From Eubacteriales bacterium (GTDB lineage: Bacteria > Bacillota > Clostridia > Oscillospirales > QAKW01), in NCBI GenBank assembly GCA_045603925.1, contig JAZUNB010000011.1, positions 1,734 through 65,733 on the forward strand: a stretch of 64,000 bases of DNA. The letters run 5' to 3'. Of the stretch, positions 7,972-39,504 are shown in pieces (position 1 is the stretch's first letter; every line of letters starts with the position of its first letter). The notes under the pieces are model-generated. The model saw only the letters and a program-made list of their open reading frames with translations. It searched no databases and was not told the origin of the DNA. The translations under genes were made by a program, and so were the position numbers.

Positions 7972-8604
7972 TTAATATGAGAAGGGGCAGTATAGCTCCT
8001 CCAGCCGCTCCACCTTAGCATTTCCTGCGGATAGATCCATCAGTTTTCGGCAAAACTCCTCTTCCTGAACCGCCTTCATCAAAAGCTCGGCATGAACCGT
8101 ATCGCTGAATTCGGTATCTTGAATCTCGATCTTCATATCGTCGGTCAACCGCTGAAGCCGATCATAAAAGGAATAACTGCATCCCACCTTCAGGCGAACG
8201 CCTCGCTCCATGACCGCAATTCCCGCCGCACGAACACCGTCTGCCGCGCCCTTGGAATAAGCCCGCACCAAACCGCCCGCACCCAGCAGGATCCCACCGA
8301 AATAGCGGGTCACAACAACTGCAACATTATACAGATCCTCTTTTTTCAACACATCCAGCATAGGCATTCCGGCAGTTCCGCCCGGCTCTCCATCGTCAAA
8401 AAAACGCTCTACAAACGGTGTTTTCAACCGATAAGCCGCGCAGTTATGGGTAGCATCGGGAAACTCCGCCTTCATTCTGGCGATGAAAGCATCCGCCTCT
8501 TCAACGGTTTCCACCCGTTCCAGGGTCGTTATAAACCGGCTTTTACGCTCTATAAATTCTGTTCGGCAGTTGGATGCCGGAACCAAATAACCGTTTTCCT
8601 GCAT
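7972..8604 (-). CDS. YigZ / IMPACT-family protein (UPF0029)
   Basis: 210 aa with RKSRFI...HNCAAY...DDGEPGGTAGMPML...VVVTRYFGGILLGAGGLVRAY, which is typical of the family. Confidence 0.8.
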   Translation of the reverse strand: MQENGYLVPASNCRTEFIERKSRFITTLERVETVEEADAFIARMKAEFPDATHNCAAYRLKTPFVERFFDDGEPGGTAGMPMLDVLKKEDLYNVAVVVTRYFGGILLGAGGLVRAYSKGAADGVRAAGIAVMERGVRLKVGCSYSFYDRLQRLTDDMKIEIQDTEFSDTVHAELLMKAVQEEEFCRKLMDLSAGNAKVERLEELYCPFSY

Positions 8605-8635
8605 TGATATTCTCCAAAATCAATTAATTATTACT

Positions 8636-8664
8636 ATTTTAGCACAGTTTTACGGATTTCGCAA
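8636..8664 (-). promoter_or_regulatory. sigma-A type promoter for the yigZ-family gene
   Basis: Minus strand reads TTGCGA (8664-8659), a 17-nt spacer, then TGcTAAAAT (extended -10, 8641-8636). Confidence 0.5.
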
Positions 8665-8718
8665 TCCAAAAAGGAAAATGCTCCGCCAAATGCGTTGTAC
8701 CCGTAAGGACAATCAATC

Positions 8719-8774
8719 AAAAAGAAAACTCTCAATCCGGCTTTCATGCTTGATTGAGAGTTTTTTTGTTTTTT
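8719..8774. terminator. bidirectional rho-independent terminator
   Basis: 11-bp stem aactctcaatc (8727-8737) / gattgagagtt (8752-8762). It is flanked by A10-like (8719-8728) and T-rich (8761-8774) runs, so a U-tract follows the stem in either sense. In minus sense it closes the ilvA transcript after the hairpin array. Confidence 0.6.
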
Positions 8775-8775
8775 G

Positions 8776-8981
8776 GCGATATGTCGGCCTTTGGCCGACT
8801 CGATATATTTGCCAAAGGCAAATTCGATATAATTTTCCAAGGAAAATTTCGATATGATATCAATTCCTTTTCTCGTCCCGAAGGGACATATCGAACCGAA
8901 GGTATATCGAATCCCAATGGAATATATCGAAAATTCCAAAGGAATTTATATCGCTGCAAAGTGTCCTTAGGAGCACTTTGC
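8776..8981. repeat. mirror-symmetric array of eight short hairpins joined by the conserved heptamers GCGATAT/TCGATAT (x4) then ATATCGA/ATATCGC (x4)
   Basis: Heptamers lie at 8776, 8800, 8824 and 8849 (sense) and at 8888, 8904, 8924 and 8948 (exact reverse complement). Hairpins lie at 8783-8799, 8807-8823, 8831-8848, 8875-8887, 8895-8903, 8911-8923, 8931-8947 and 8956-8981. Every stem ends in CC-(2-4 nt loop)-GG, but the stem sequences differ from unit to unit. Confidence 0.7.
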
Positions 8982-8996
8982 GAAGCGGAGCATTTT

Positions 8997-10193
8997 TTAA
9001 TCTAATAATTTAAAACCAAATTCCGATAGTGCGTTGCGGATAATCTCCACATGCTCAAAGTTTCTGGTTTCCAGAATAACATGCAGATAGCAGCCGTTGA
9101 TATCCGACCCTGCATTAGTATGCTCATGGTGCACACCGATCACATTGCCGCCCAATTCGGCGATAATTCGGGATACATGCTTCAGCTGACCAGGCTTATC
9201 CATCAATTCGATGTTCAGACGGCAGGTTCTTCCTGACATCAGAAGACCTCGATCAATAACGCGGGAAAGGATGGTAACATCGATATTACCACCCGAGAGC
9301 AGGCAGGCCACCTTCTTCCCTTTGATCGGCACCTTATTAAACATTGCCGCCGCGGCCGCAGTAGCGCCTGCACCTTCAGTCACCAATTTCTGCTGCTCCA
9401 TCAAAGCAAGGATCGCCGCAGAAATCTCATCATCGGTAACGGTAACGATCTCGTCCACATATTTGGAGCAAAGTTCAAAGGTCAACTGTCCGGGCTTTTT
9501 CACCGCAATACCGTCTGCAATGGTGGAAACGCTCTTTAATTCTTCGATCTGATGATCCTTGACCGAATTGAACATGCTGGGCGCACCTGCTGCTTGAACA
9601 CCGTAAACCTTGATATTGGGGTTTAAGTTCTTTACCGCAAAGGCAACACCCGAGATCAATCCGCCACCGCCGATGGGGACAATCACAGCATCCAGATCCT
9701 GAATCTGATCAAAAAGTTCCAGACCGATGGTGCCCTGACCGGCAATAACATATTCATCATCAAAGGGATGGATAAAGGTATAGCCCTTTTCATCCCGCAG
9801 TTGCAGAGCCTTGGCATAGGCATCATCATAAACACCCTCCACCAAAACCACCTCTGCGCCATAGCTGCGGGTAGCCTCAACCTTAGAGATCGGTGCACCG
9901 TCGGGCAAACAGATCACCGATTTGATCCCGTTTTTTTGAGCAGAAAGAGCAACCCCTTGAGCATGATTGCCCGCAGAGCAGGCAATCACGCCTCTGGCCT
10001 TTTCCTCATCGCTCAGCTGAGACATCTTATAATAAGCGCCCCGAACCTTAAAGGAACCGGTGATCTGCAGATTTTCGGTCTTTAAATAAACCTCAGCCTC
10101 CGGATTAATATGGGGAGCCGCGATCACATCCGTTTTACGGATCACATCTCTCAATACATATCCGGCATGGTAGATTTTATCAAGTGTCAACAT
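8997..10193 (-). CDS. ilvA: threonine ammonia-lyase (biosynthetic threonine dehydratase, short form with one ACT-like domain)
   Basis: 398 aa with the PLP-lysine motif GSFKVRGA, the glycine loop PIGGGGLISG and a C-terminal regulatory domain. It is the last gene of the BCAA operon. Confidence 0.85.
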   Translation of the reverse strand: MLTLDKIYHAGYVLRDVIRKTDVIAAPHINPEAEVYLKTENLQITGSFKVRGAYYKMSQLSDEEKARGVIACSAGNHAQGVALSAQKNGIKSVICLPDGAPISKVEATRSYGAEVVLVEGVYDDAYAKALQLRDEKGYTFIHPFDDEYVIAGQGTIGLELFDQIQDLDAVIVPIGGGGLISGVAFAVKNLNPNIKVYGVQAAGAPSMFNSVKDHQIEELKSVSTIADGIAVKKPGQLTFELCSKYVDEIVTVTDDEISAAILALMEQQKLVTEGAGATAAAAAMFNKVPIKGKKVACLLSGGNIDVTILSRVIDRGLLMSGRTCRLNIELMDKPGQLKHVSRIIAELGGNVIGVHHEHTNAGSDINGCYLHVILETRNFEHVEIIRNALSEFGFKLLD

Positions 10194-10208: not shown

Positions 10209-11411
10209 CTATTGTTGCGAAAGTAAATAGTCTGTAAACTGATCGGCCGCACGGGCAGAACGCCCGCCCTTGCGAAGAGCAAAGGCTTCGGCAAGAAGCT
10301 CTAGTTCATTGGGATCCTTCCCGATCCCCTTGACTTCTGCCAATTGATGAACGATCCGAAGGTAAAGCTCTTTATTGGGCTTGGAAAAGAGAACCGTCAG
10401 CCCAAAACGCTCCGAAAGAGAGATCAGTTCCTGCACCGTATCATTATGATGCACATCATCCCCCGAGCGATCCGAGAAGCTTTCCTTCACCAAATGGCGG
10501 CGGGTGCTGGTGGCATAGATCACCGTATTCTTATTACGCGCCGAAACCGACCCTTCCAATATTGCCTTTAGAGTGCTGAAATAATCGTCATTTTTATTGA
10601 AGGAAAGATCATCAATAAAGATAATAAACTTTAAAGGATTCCGGCTAAGCTCGTCCATAATCATCGGCAATTGAAGCACCTGCTCCTTGCGGATCTCGAT
10701 CAAGCGAAGGCCTTCCGAAGCTAAAAGGTTGGTTACCGCCTTCACTGTGGAGGACTTACCGGTACCGGCATCCCCGCAAAGAAGAATGTTGGCAGCGGGC
10801 TTCCCATTCAATAATGCGCGGGTATTATCAATGACCTGCTTGCGCTCTTCTTCATAGCCGATCAGATCCTCCAAAGAGATGGGATCTGCACTGCGAACAG
10901 GTACAATACTGCCATCCTGCAGGGTAAACATCCGATTGGATACAAAAATTCCGTAGCCAAACCGATGAACATCCTTGACCCGCGCTTCATAAAGCGCCGC
11001 AAAATCTTTGGCCTCATTTTCAAAGAGCGCAAGATAACCGACATGGCCCACCATCTCGGCAAGCTTTTGAGGTTCCAATGAAGAGATCGCCGAAAACAAA
11101 GCAAGTTCATTTTCAACACAGCGTTGCAAAACCGCAGGGATCGGTTCATTATGGGCTCTTAAGATCACATATTCATTTTCATCCTCAAACAATGCCTTTT
11201 GAAGATAATCGCTCAGGCAATGGGAAAATGAAAACAACGCGCCCACAAATGCGCTATAGCTATCGGCCAAGGCCACCTTATCTTCTGTTTTCAGATTTAA
11301 GAAACTGCGCAGGGCAACCATCGGCGGTTGCTGCAAAACATTGCGGAATACCACCACCGAGGAAAGCGCCATAGAAACATTCTTCCAATCCGAGATCATC
11401 GGGTTCGCCAC
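10209..11411 (-). CDS. DUF815-family P-loop ATPase with an uncharacterised ~170-aa N-terminal domain
   Basis: 400 aa. Walker A is LLCGDAGTGKSSTVKAV and the DUF815-typical block is FIIFIDDLSF...LKAILEGS. It lies 7 nt after leuB and 15 nt before ilvA. Confidence 0.75.
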   Translation of the reverse strand: MANPMISDWKNVSMALSSVVVFRNVLQQPPMVALRSFLNLKTEDKVALADSYSAFVGALFSFSHCLSDYLQKALFEDENEYVILRAHNEPIPAVLQRCVENELALFSAISSLEPQKLAEMVGHVGYLALFENEAKDFAALYEARVKDVHRFGYGIFVSNRMFTLQDGSIVPVRSADPISLEDLIGYEEERKQVIDNTRALLNGKPAANILLCGDAGTGKSSTVKAVTNLLASEGLRLIEIRKEQVLQLPMIMDELSRNPLKFIIFIDDLSFNKNDDYFSTLKAILEGSVSARNKNTVIYATSTRRHLVKESFSDRSGDDVHHNDTVQELISLSERFGLTVLFSKPNKELYLRIVHQLAEVKGIGKDPNELELLAEAFALRKGGRSARAADQFTDYLLSQQ

Positions 11412-38535: not shown

Positions 38536-39504
38536 TCAGCCCTCCAGGGCCTTCAGGCGGCCTTCCAGGTCTTCAATGTATTCTTCAAAGGTAATATCGC
38601 GGTTATAGATCTCGGTTGCCACCTCAACCCCCACATAGCGGTAATGCCAGGGCTCGTAATTATAGCCGGTGATATGTTCATCACCCTTGCGGTAGCGCAA
38701 AATAAAGCCATATTCATGGGCATGAGCAGAAAACCATCTGAATTCCGCAGTTTGATCGTAATTTTCATGCAAGCATGCATATTTATTAACAATGGAGGGA
38801 ATGCAGACATCGGCCGCAAGACCGGTATGATGCTCGCTGGCGCCGGGAGGAGCATAATATTGATCGGTCAGGCGAATGGCCTCTTCTTCCGATTTTCCTT
38901 GACCCTTGTAATAATCAATCTTATTGTAGTATTTATTATATTGGCTGGAATAAGTGCGATAGCCGGAGTACAAAGTATAATTGTAGCCCGCTCTCTCCCC
39001 CGCCTTGATCAATTGCAACAGCGCATTGGAGCAGGTACTGTTCAACTGATAATAATTCGCGCGGGAGAATGCCACAAGGTTGGAAGGAACATAATCCGAA
39101 GAAACCCTATGATCACGGTTCACTAAGATCATATAGGGATCATTCAATACCGCCTTGATCTCCTCCGCGGTTTTGGGATCCGGATTTAAACCGCTTAAGG
39201 GAACATTGGACGGCTCATCCACGGAAGGCTCCGGTTCGGGTTCCGGCTCGGGTTCGGGCTCGGGCTCGGGTTCGGGCTCGGGCTCCGGCTCCGGTTCCGG
39301 TTCCGGCTCAGGCTCCGGTTCGGGCGCAGGGGTCACAGGCTCATCGGTCTGCTCATTATTGCCATCTGATTCCACGGTGGGCGCAGGATCTTCTCCTTGA
39401 GAAGGGGCCTCATCCTCCCGCAAAAGTGAGCAAGCCGAAACGATCATTATAATGACCAGACAGGCAAGCCCTAAAAACAACGCAATCTTACTTTTACTTT
39501 TCAT
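38536..39504 (-). CDS. lipoprotein D-alanyl-D-alanine carboxypeptidase (VanY / peptidase M15B) with (PE)n linker
   Basis: Lipobox IVSAC, then about 16 PE dipeptides. The catalytic domain shows SGYRTY...SEHHTGLAADV...EPWHYRYVG. Confidence 0.8.
   Translation of the reverse strand: MKSKSKIALFLGLACLVIIMIVSACSLLREDEAPSQGEDPAPTVESDGNNEQTDEPVTPAPEPEPEPEPEPEPEPEPEPEPEPEPEPEPEPEPSVDEPSNVPLSGLNPDPKTAEEIKAVLNDPYMILVNRDHRVSSDYVPSNLVAFSRANYYQLNSTCSNALLQLIKAGERAGYNYTLYSGYRTYSSQYNKYYNKIDYYKGQGKSEEEAIRLTDQYYAPPGASEHHTGLAADVCIPSIVNKYACLHENYDQTAEFRWFSAHAHEYGFILRYRKGDEHITGYNYEPWHYRYVGVEVATEIYNRDITFEEYIEDLEGRLKALEG
39227..39325 (-). repeat. coding hexanucleotide tandem repeat (ggytcs)n encoding (PE)n
   Basis: About 16.5 imperfect hexamers read directly in the sequence. 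They correspond to PEPEPE... in the 322-aa protein. Confidence 0.9.

Follow-up and report, generated by a model that had tools for sequence, protein, structure and literature searches.

The ilvA–yigZ locus

The stretch of DNA analysed here, referred to as the window, comprises 64,000 nucleotides of contig JAZUNB010000011.1 from a Eubacteriales bacterium. It contains an array of conserved heptamers and short hairpins that lies between ilvA (8997–10193, minus strand) and a YigZ/IMPACT gene (yigZ; 7972–8604, minus strand). The array is probably a 'solo' copy of a modular, insertion-prone and structured repeat element like an intervening sequence (IVS), inserted in the loop of the ilvA terminator; we place the probability of this reading at about 0.7. 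The element is termed E below.

The array comprises four copies of the heptamer (T/G)CGATAT followed by four copies in inverted orientation, ATATCG(A/C), with short hairpins of unrelated sequence between them. GCGATAT is located at 8776 and TCGATAT at 8800, 8824 and 8849; these are followed by ATATCGA at 8888, 8904 and 8924, and ATATCGC at 8948. This is the arrangement described in the initial annotation of the window, and the clustering is greater than that found in shuffled sequence. YCGATAT has 44 matches in the window compared with 21.3 ± 5.5 in shuffles, and 44 was reached in none of 100 shuffles. Six of these matches (the TCGATAT/ATATCGA copies) fall inside ~130 nt of the array, and with the two outer GCGATAT/ATATCGC copies there are eight heptamers in 180 nt. 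The array is the window's only group of close hairpins with a repeated linker; there are six other clusters of three hairpins, none of which has one. Either strand folds ~9–10 standard deviations better than shuffled sequence, with z = −9.3 and −9.9 for the two strands as RNA, and z = −10.7 as DNA.

The hairpins are located where the initial annotation had placed them, but the full complementarity claimed for their stems does not hold. The hairpin at 8911–8923 (ATCCCAATGGAAT) has an A.C mismatch on the plus strand that becomes a G.U pair on the minus strand, and the last hairpin (8956–8981) has a one-base bulge. Closure of every stem by CC and GG about a short loop is correct for the window copy but not for the family, in which stems of relatives are closed by GC, CG or AU pairs. 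The repeat unit is longer than the interval originally flagged, extending from ~8687 to 8984 and so including a 'bidirectional terminator' at 8714–8775.

Insertion into the ilvA terminator

Two relatives, L242 (IlvA 97% identical) and L243 (94% identical), have the same gene order of leuB, DUF815/AAA, ilvA, yigZ, response regulator and histidine kinase, and in both the array is absent. The ilvA–yigZ spacer is 106 nt in L242 and 100 nt in L243, compared with 392 nt in the window. Each has an intact intrinsic terminator at the empty site; that of L242 is AAATGCTCCGA-TTTTTT-TCGGAGCATTTTT (−17.3 kcal/mol), and that of L243 is AAAGTGCTCCGATAAAATCGGAGCGCTTTTTT. On alignment, the window unit of ~298 nt separates two terminator arms that are joined in these relatives. 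The separated halves (8985–8996 and 8675–8686) form a perfect 12-nt inverted repeat, and in L242 and L243 they are adjacent as an 11-bp terminator hairpin with its U-run. Relatives with 89% identical IlvA have a different downstream gene, and there too the element is absent. These comparisons show that the window array is a copy of a dispersed, modular repeat that conserves its structure, that it entered the ilvA terminator loop in this lineage specifically, bringing a terminator of its own, and that it did so after the split from the relatives with 94–97% identical IlvA.

A second filled site is found in L001, which is the same species with an identical YigZ. The insertion is present there minus exactly one 24-nt unit, consisting of hp6 and a heptamer (named as in the list below). 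The loss of one complete hairpin-plus-heptamer unit indicates that the arrays change in steps of entire units, at the heptamers.

On the minus strand at 8636–8664, 3′ of the split ilvA terminator, lies a promoter-like site for yigZ (TTGCGA, 17 nt, TGcTAAAAT). The empty-site relatives have an equivalent, and the site is left intact by the insertion. As yigZ thus retains a promoter of its own, the insertion is likely to be neutral or to do no more than stabilize the 3′ end of the transcript.

Split stems that resemble terminators, 12 and 13 nt long, enclose two further copies (L044 and L067), where by a rough estimate ~0.05 chance matches would be expected over 40 loci. Split outer stems were considered as a family-wide trait and rejected; significant stems of 12–13 nt are found in only 3 of 40 copies, and 10-nt matches between A/T runs are within chance. 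At the three inferred insertion junctions no shared cleavage tetranucleotide was found, and their left flanks (CTCCG, GACCG and GAGGA) have no clear common motif.

Architecture of the inserted unit

The features of the locus are listed here from the ilvA stop codon onwards, with sequences in the minus sense.

8985–8996, minus: 5′ half of the ilvA intrinsic terminator, AAAATGCTCCGC; split by the insertion, directly after the ilvA stop codon (8997–8999)
8687–8984, minus: inserted repeat unit, ~290–298 nt; absent from the relatives of same synteny with 97% and 94% identical IlvA
8956–8981, minus: hp0 (P0), 5′ hairpin before heptamer 1, GCAAAGTG-C-TCC-TAA-GGA-CACTTTGC
8888–8954, minus: 5′ array of heptamers H1 to H4 and hairpins, which covary; H1 (GCGATAT) 8948–8954, hp1 8931–8947, H2 8924–8930, hp2 8911–8923 (with the G.U pair), H3 8904–8910, hp3 8895–8903, H4 8888–8894
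8941–8952, minus: IR-L, formed by the final 5 nt of H1 and the hp1 5′ arm, GATATAAATTCC
8875–8887, minus: hp4, GUCCC-UUC-GGGAC, followed by a conserved GAG
8856–8867, minus: centre segment IR-R, GGAATTGATATC; repeats the hp1 3′ arm, with ATATC added, and holds the GATATC 'centre'
8776–8855, minus: 3′ array; H5 (ATATCGA) 8849–8855, hp5 8831–8848, H6 8824–8830, hp6 8807–8823, H7 8800–8806, hp7 8783–8799, H8 (ATATCGC) 8776–8782
8714–8775, minus: the unit's own intrinsic terminator; A-tract, ACTCTCAATC, 14-nt loop, GATTGAGAGT, then TTTTCTTTTT
8697–8711, minus: right-terminal imperfect hairpin, resembling a terminal inverted repeat (TIR), TGTCCTTACGGGTAC; like an inverted copy of the hp0 core
8668–8686, minus: 3′ half of the split ilvA terminator with its T-tract (CCTTTTT), GCGGAGCATTTT; its counterpart in the alignment is the 3′ arm with the U-run of the unsplit terminators of L242 and L243

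In the minus sense the unit thus begins with CTTC and hp0, and continues as the heptamer/hairpin array, its own terminator and the terminal hairpin. The CCAAAT at 8687–8692 may be a leftover of the original terminator loop. A hairpin of variable sequence occupies the hp0 position in nearly all of the ~47 family members parsed, and a core of GTGYCC..GGACAC is common to L003, L018, L044, L068, L077 and L119. The right-terminal hairpin is 80% complementary to 8962–8976 as an inverted repeat, and by inspection L044 and L067 have a comparable similarity between hp0 and the right end.

The terminator at 8714–8775 is supported by its inverted repeat, by folding and by a terminator scan, and it is kept with the unit at an unrelated locus in L119. 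It has the attributes of a rho-independent terminator, with a stem of 10–13 bp followed by UUUUCUUUUU on the minus strand. A simple terminator scan misses it because the loop is 14 nt, and a custom scan detects it.

The hp5 hairpin (8831–8848, AATTTTCCAAGGAAAATT) was considered as a CodY box (AATTTTCWGAAAATT) and rejected. The likeness is coincidental; the spacing of the half-sites is wrong and the module is variable among relatives.

A dispersed family in gut and rumen Clostridia

Relatives of the array were sought by a scan of one genome per species, with three spaced copies of TCGATAT as the pattern. This gave at least 120 matches, and among the matches listed at least ~80 loci are true arrays with hairpins between the heptamers; the rest are ordinary tandem repeats. 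Nearly all of the carriers are gut or rumen metagenome-assembled genomes (MAGs) of Oscillospiraceae, Acutalibacteraceae, Christensenellaceae or other or unclassified Clostridia. At least eight MAGs have arrays on two or more contigs (among the matches listed), and two copies are found on one contig in L042, L050, L077, L110 and L071. In viral contigs the matches were mostly plain tandem repeats with ~5 true elements, so there was no enrichment in phages.

Forty copies have the full mirror architecture with clear polarity, and these define Form B, which corresponds to the window minus strand. The order is hp0, then TCGATAT-hairpin repeated ~4 times, GAG, a copy of the hp1 3′ arm, ATATC, ATATCGA-hairpin repeated ~4 times, and usually CAAAA. 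The spacing of the heptamers varies from 16 to ~40 bp across the family. Some members have one array only (L092, L014 and L059), and in L056 the arrays are everted.

The L119 copy, from another Clostridia MAG, is a close homologue of the window unit located between unrelated genes. The homology extends from hp0 to the T-run of the shared ACTCTCAATC...GATTGAGAGT terminator. Between these ends some hairpins differ by compensatory changes and others are wholly replaced; hp4, for example, is GTCCC..GGGAC in the window and GTTGC..GCAAC in L119.

All copies lie between protein-coding or tRNA genes. Of 35 intergenic settings classified from crude open reading frame (ORF) calls, 15 are between convergent genes, 18 between tandem genes and two between divergent genes. 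The flanking genes are functionally unrelated (metal ATPase, deacetylase, transketolase, patatin, CDF, MATE and YceG). The initial annotation had proposed that the segment is a structured 3′ untranslated region (UTR) or small RNA (sRNA) of the branched-chain amino acid (BCAA) operon, and had named several observations that would tell against this. Two of them were made: close relatives in which the ilvA–yigZ junction is retained do not have the segment, and dispersed related copies adjoin unrelated genes.

The element corresponds to no named RNA family, in agreement with the initial annotation. A search of window positions 8000–9600 against Rfam 15 at E ≤ 10 gave best overlapping matches of 15–23 bits compared with thresholds of 41–100, and 18 family loci (140 kb) at the gathering thresholds gave only tRNAs and one SAM riboswitch. 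Full-text literature searches found no description of the element, including under tandem-hairpin RNAs, MITEs (miniature transposable elements with inverted repeats) and loop insertions in Clostridia; the heptamer strings returned only primers and unrelated papers. The family therefore appears to be undescribed.

Several variants of the arrangement are seen. In L021 (1750–2060) and L103 (20–110), from the Oscillospiraceae MAG SIG450, a TCGATAT array is followed by a second hairpin array with the linker (CA)ATTCATG, and several 'linker families' of such arrays may exist. In Christensenella and related MAGs (L012:6000–6450, minus strand; L014:520–800; L059:4650–4950) TCGATAT arrays of a single orientation are bracketed by the inverted repeats GTTGAAAGTTGAAA and TTTCAACTTTCAAC, which replace the second heptamer array. 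L042 (4506–6386) has two 218-nt copies of the element, 97% identical and 1,663 bp apart, on either side of one HD-domain gene. GC-rich, GAGCGA-rich inserts of ~100 nt lie within an array hairpin loop in L003 (4830–4970), L144 (5620–5740) and L228 (6600–6720), a further case of sequence lodged in a hairpin loop. One subfamily (L046, L086, L077 at 2630–2800, and L113) has a conserved extension ~100–170 nt 3′ of the array, with a convergent small ORF of 13–19 aa starting MGDVLSGE or MRDVLGGE.

Some other explanations of the modules were set aside. Derivation of hp0 from the 3′ end of rumA was rejected, as hp0 sequences are as variable as those of the other hairpins. Nesting of a mini-hairpin (CTCGCC..GGCGAG) into loops was seen twice only, with similar flanks, and a shared long hairpin module explains it better. 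The array was also considered as a clustered regularly interspaced short palindromic repeat (CRISPR) locus, as the repeat of a type III toxin–antitoxin system and as a riboswitch with terminator; these were rejected on the lack of gene association, the non-identical units and the absence from close relatives.

Hairpin covariation and the functional strand

The hairpins are conserved in structure and not in sequence, as the initial annotation had proposed. Copies were recovered by pattern and aligned using MAFFT and RNAalifold. Watson–Crick pairs account for 1,090 of the ~1,185 stem positions in the parsed copies. In a 20-member alignment the hairpin positions are 95.1% paired, compared with 69.1% in shuffles, and there are 116 compensatory cells compared with 34, the observed value being reached in none of 500 shuffles. 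RNAalifold identifies 24 pairs with compensatory double changes.

The functional strand is the minus strand of the window, which also had been proposed. Read in the Form B sense, the non-canonical cells comprise 67 tandem G.A/A.G and 14 G.U, with only four A.C/C.A and two C.U/C.C. The G.A cells arise mostly from a GAGC-GAA-GCGA motif in hp5, the first hairpin after the centre, and this is formed on one strand only. Between tandem genes the element is oriented with the genes in 14 cases and against them in four (from the crude ORF calls), and copies are rare between divergent genes. In all eight linked loci of the genome scan the sense of the element is that of the PF05635 gene described below. 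The loops of the two arrays are mirror-symmetric, with UNNC or UUC in the 5′ array and GNRA or GAA in the 3′ array.

Long-range pairings

IR-L (8941–8952) is complementary to the centre segment (8856–8867) at 11 of 12 positions. More generally, the last five bases of heptamer 1 together with the 5′ arm of hp1 are complementary at 12–14 of 14 positions to the segment just before heptamer 5, and this is so in all 40 copies. The interaction is 99.2% paired in 20 sequences with 26 compensatory cells, and the stem part covaries. Where the variant GAGAT occurs it is always accompanied by ATCTC at the centre (7/7), while heptamer 8 remains ATATCGA.

The initial annotation had paired the heptamers as a nested ladder (1–8, 2–7, 3–6 and 4–5). 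This ladder is favoured thermodynamically, but the pairing of heptamer 1 with heptamer 8 is contradicted, since heptamer 1 covaries with the centre and heptamer 8 is unchanged. The other heptamer pairs (2–7, 3–6 and 4–5) are neither supported nor refuted, because the heptamers are almost invariant; only position 1 varies, giving eight G–C cells compared with four mismatches. From the members with one array, and from L021, where the linker of the second array (ATTCATG) is not complementary to the first, it follows that heptamer–heptamer pairing is not obligatory. The 5′ arm of hp1 has two covarying partners, one local and one at the centre, and the element therefore has two competing folds; these differ by 4–10 kcal/mol in a pseudoknot-free model.

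Association with PF05635 genes

Among the matches listed, 8 of the ~80 array loci (~10%) have a gene of the PF05635 family (S23p / 23S-rRNA IVS / Avd-like) directly downstream. Its start lies 15–25 nt beyond heptamer 8, in every case in the Form B sense, and the motif is ATATCGA-CAAA(A)GGAG-N-ATG. Four further protein look-ups gave 12 loci, in all of which the array lies directly upstream of the gene; these fall in three gene contexts, namely rumA, an aminotransferase and an MFS transporter. At E < 1e-20 the clade comprises 3,906 homologues, every one of which comes from a Clostridia MAG or a metagenome. In the 64-kb window a PF05635 gene was not found.

PF05635 proteins are homopentameric four-helix bundles of unknown function, and their genes are carried in selfish IVS elements within helix loops of 23S rRNA, with complementary sequence at the borders (PMC4990558). 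They are homologous to Avd, the accessory protein of diversity-generating retroelements (PMC10053308). The closest solved structure is 2rld. The linked four-helix-bundle proteins are 61–90% identical, compared with only 36–48% for the adjacent RumA-like methyltransferases.

Many of the PF05635 homologues (P0123–P0237) have N-termini over-extended by 40–70 residues, an annotation artefact in which the gene caller reads through the array. Each of the 24 over-extended ORF calls that were examined includes a translation of the 3′ array; in one, for example, DLYHIE..ISN..ISN..YIDKGE corresponds to GATTTATATCATATCGA ... TATATCGACAAAGGAGA.

The commonest context of the element with a PF05635 gene is directly after a TRAM/tRNA_U5-meth_tr gene, encoding a RumA/RlmD-like 23S rRNA methyltransferase (L255, L256–L259, L033, L039 and L110). 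The stop codon of this gene falls within heptamer 1 or hairpin 1, and the rRNA methyltransferase may be functionally linked to the 'IVS protein'.

In L110 (630–1330) and L248 (2870–3470) the PF05635 gene lies between a 3′-type array upstream and a 5′-type array downstream, giving the order L-C-R-gene-L. This is as expected from the integration of a circular or tandem form. The arrangements in L110, L248 and L042 look like cassette or Campbell-type integration at arrays.

Other features of the window

A gene for a DUF815/AAA-like ATPase of 400 aa (10209–11411, minus strand) lies between leuB and ilvA, and its position is kept in all the relatives fetched (L242–L247). At 39227–39325 there are ~16 tandem copies of the hexamers GGCTCC/GGCTCG (81–85% match), which probably encode a Gly/Ser/Ala-rich protein repeat.

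Comparison with known systems

The closest comparison is with the 23S rRNA IVS of Leptospira, Coxiella and Brucella, which encode an S23p/PF05635 ORF. Each is a small selfish insertion that occupies the loop of an RNA hairpin already in place and has complementary borders, with no known mechanism of movement (PMC4990558). The association with the gene of the four-helix-bundle protein is shared by ~10% of E copies and by all the clade contexts examined, and not by the window copy. The host hairpin of E is a terminator in mRNA and not an rRNA helix, its copies do not lie in the 23S rRNA gene, whereas IVSs are located there and cut out by RNase III, its gene is located downstream of the structured module, and most copies have no gene. 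To our knowledge a body built from a heptamer/hairpin array has not been described for IVSs.

E shares with the repetitive extragenic palindromic (REP) sequences of Proteobacteria and their bacterial interspersed mosaic elements (BIMEs), mobilized by REP-associated tyrosine transposases (RAYTs), the placement of short palindromic units after a conserved short motif in direct and inverted clusters. Both are multi-copy and intergenic, mostly at the 3′ ends of genes (for E the convergent and tandem settings above), and both are presumed to act as hairpins in single-stranded DNA (ssDNA) or RNA. However, the REP palindrome is conserved within a genome and carries a GTAG motif, while in E the stems are free and only the 7-nt linker TCGATAT/ATATCGA is conserved; the taxon is Clostridia, and no RAYT gene was found within 4 kb of the ~80 copies. 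Like the BOX elements of Streptococcus pneumoniae (boxA-boxB(n)-boxC), E is a modular interspersed repeat with a variable number of internal modules, a very stable fold, an intergenic location, an effect on neighbouring transcripts and no known transposase (PMC3049150 for the class). BOX modules differ in being conserved in sequence and 45–59 nt in length, without the heptamer-linker logic or an associated protein gene.

The attC sites of integrons also have conserved 7-nt core motifs in inverse orientation around a palindrome conserved in structure, and are recognized as a folded single strand; the duplications in L042 and L110 are like gene cassettes. Their core is GTTRRRY (R''/R' RYYYAAC/GTTRRRY) and not TCGATAT, and they form one hairpin and not an array. 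No IntI or other tyrosine recombinase is recurrent within 4 kb of the ~80 E copies, and no cassette array was found. MITEs and palindromic elements derived from the insertion sequences (IS) IS200/IS605 are similarly non-autonomous, ~200–300 bp, dispersed and polymorphic in their insertion between close strains, with hairpins at both ends. E has the terminal hairpins, but no clear TIRs, no target-site duplication, no clear motif in the flanks and a unique internal architecture, and no TnpA gene (≤4 kb) or matching autonomous IS was found. CRISPR loci have identical repeats of ≥23 nt, non-palindromic spacers and cas genes, unlike the 7-nt unit and variable palindromes of 9–20 nt in E, which has no cas-like neighbours.

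Nature of the element

As full-length relatives carry E directly upstream of a PF05635 gene, E most likely represents the structured module that acts in cis within a small selfish unit of the IVS kind, of which the window copy lacks the gene. The module consists of tandem units, each of one conserved heptamer and one short hairpin of free sequence. In full form two arrays are disposed in inverted orientation around the centre, preceded by the longer hairpin hp0, and in the lineage of the window the element adds its own intrinsic terminator and terminal hairpin. As a minus-strand transcript it would be the tail of the ilvA mRNA, folding into hp0 and a very stable multi-hairpin body in which the pairing of heptamer 1 and hp1 with the centre (supported by covariation) may compete with that between 5′ and 3′ heptamers (favoured by thermodynamics), and ilvA transcription would end at the terminator of E. 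The hairpins would be maintained in single-stranded form, as RNA and/or ssDNA. The heptamers would be conserved points of recognition or recombination at which units are lost, gained or swapped; such a change exactly at a heptamer is seen once, in L001.

A number of observations weigh against a mobile structured element of this kind. No target-site duplication is seen at the junction between filled and empty sites in the window, the inverted similarity between the hp0 core and the right-terminal hairpin is weak (~12/16 positions), and no recurrent transposase, recombinase or reverse transcriptase was found among 1,359 clustered ORFs ≤4 kb from the ~80 copies; several of the top neighbour 'families' in this clustering are spurious ORFs that read through the array itself. 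There is one copy in the 64-kb window, and an exact 26-mer of the window subfamily (hp0-H1-hp1) had no matches in JGI metagenomes. Perfect DNA palindromes can stay complementary through template-switch ('quasipalindrome') correction, and because template switching can restore their symmetry, covariation alone does not prove selection on RNA. C-GAA-G is a classic, very stable DNA mini-hairpin, and taken with the mirror-symmetric loops this makes a role as ssDNA possible on both strands. The polarity of terminators failed as evidence for the strand, as terminators follow the element in 13 and 12 of 39 cases in the two senses. Finally, the rumA-E-PF05635 arrangement is kept across deeply diverged lineages, which could mean that E has a host function there and is not purely selfish.

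An alternative is that E functions in the first place as a structured RNA, forming a leader or an element between cistrons to which the pentameric PF05635 protein binds for autoregulation or assembly. The heptamers would then be sites for protein or for pairing and the alternative long-range helices a switch, with the solo copies acting as decoys or sponges, or as 3′-end stabilizers and terminators, and dispersal being secondary. The strict sense polarity with the PF05635 gene agrees with this, as does a ribosome-binding site 2–10 nt after heptamer 8, and sigma-70-like promoters can be read by eye directly upstream of hp0 or H1 in L010, L025 and L092. The covariation of both arms of hp1 with the centre is typical of mutually exclusive helices, the two folds lie only a few kcal/mol apart (see above), the strand-specific G.A motif recurs in hp5, and the rumA-E-PF05635 synteny survives the divergence of RumA. 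On the other hand, the window copy is a recent insertion without its PF05635 gene, ~90% of copies are solo and lie beside unrelated genes, the number of units differs even within one species, and half-arrays, everted arrays and arrays with other linkers occur. We regard a primarily functional RNA as possible but doubtful. It is improbable that the units work instead as ssDNA, each array on a different strand, as REP-like sites for a structure-specific enzyme such as an HUH/Y1 nuclease encoded elsewhere, which would mobilize E from the template of the lagging strand. Whichever strand is taken, the array that reads ATATCGA does have C–G-closed GAA, GNA or GNRA loops, with the other array as their complement, and mini-hairpins of the GCGAAGC type are exceptionally stable in DNA. 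Insertion into a hairpin loop without target duplication, the hairpins at both ends of the unit and the strong predicted folding of the DNA fit as well. Yet no Y1/HUH or other nuclease gene is recurrent within 4 kb of the ~80 copies, the tandem G.A motif and the G.U pairs are confined to one strand, and the three junctions share no tetranucleotide.

The two roles suggested in the initial annotation are very improbable. These are a BCAA (ilv/leu) operon 3′ UTR, or 3′-derived sRNA, that is structured and conserved, and an iteron- or centromere-like array in duplex DNA bound by a heptamer-specific protein. In their favour are the location between the ilvA stop codon and the terminator, on the sense strand, and the eight copies of one heptamer. 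However, the closest relatives with the same junction lack the element, other members of the family have unrelated neighbours, the heptamer spacing is irregular, which makes an iteron or centromere unlikely, and no partition or replication genes are associated within 4 kb of the ~80 copies.

A more speculative proposal, and an unlikely one, is that E and its PF05635 gene together form a new class of selfish element, akin in logic to the IVSs of rRNA. Binding of the heptamer/hairpin array, whether RNA or ssDNA, would fall to the pentameric four-helix-bundle protein, which would also, with host enzymes, promote the copying of the array or its insertion into exposed hairpin loops such as those of terminators, leaving solo arrays like that at ilvA.

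Significance

For the window itself the result is deflationary. The array does not represent regulation of BCAA synthesis, but a lineage-specific insertion that now supplies the effective end of the ilvA transcript. E belongs to the general kind of small bacterial interspersed repeats, with REP/BIME, BOX, MITEs and IVS. Its design of conserved linkers with free hairpins, its demonstrable insertion into a terminator loop and its tight link with S23p-family genes appear to be new. It is unusual among such repeats in combining 7-nt linkers that are conserved between Clostridia families with hairpins that are variable yet complementary. In gut MAGs, where many ORFs of PF05635 are over-extended, the arrays will confound the calling of ORFs, and they will also confound screens for sRNAs and riboswitches.

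The clean pair of filled and empty sites, together with the link to PF05635, provides a testable system for the role of the S23p protein and the movement of IVS-like elements. If E and its PF05635 gene do constitute a selfish class, this would give a function to the long-orphan S23p family and would suggest a mechanism for the spread of elements of the IVS type.

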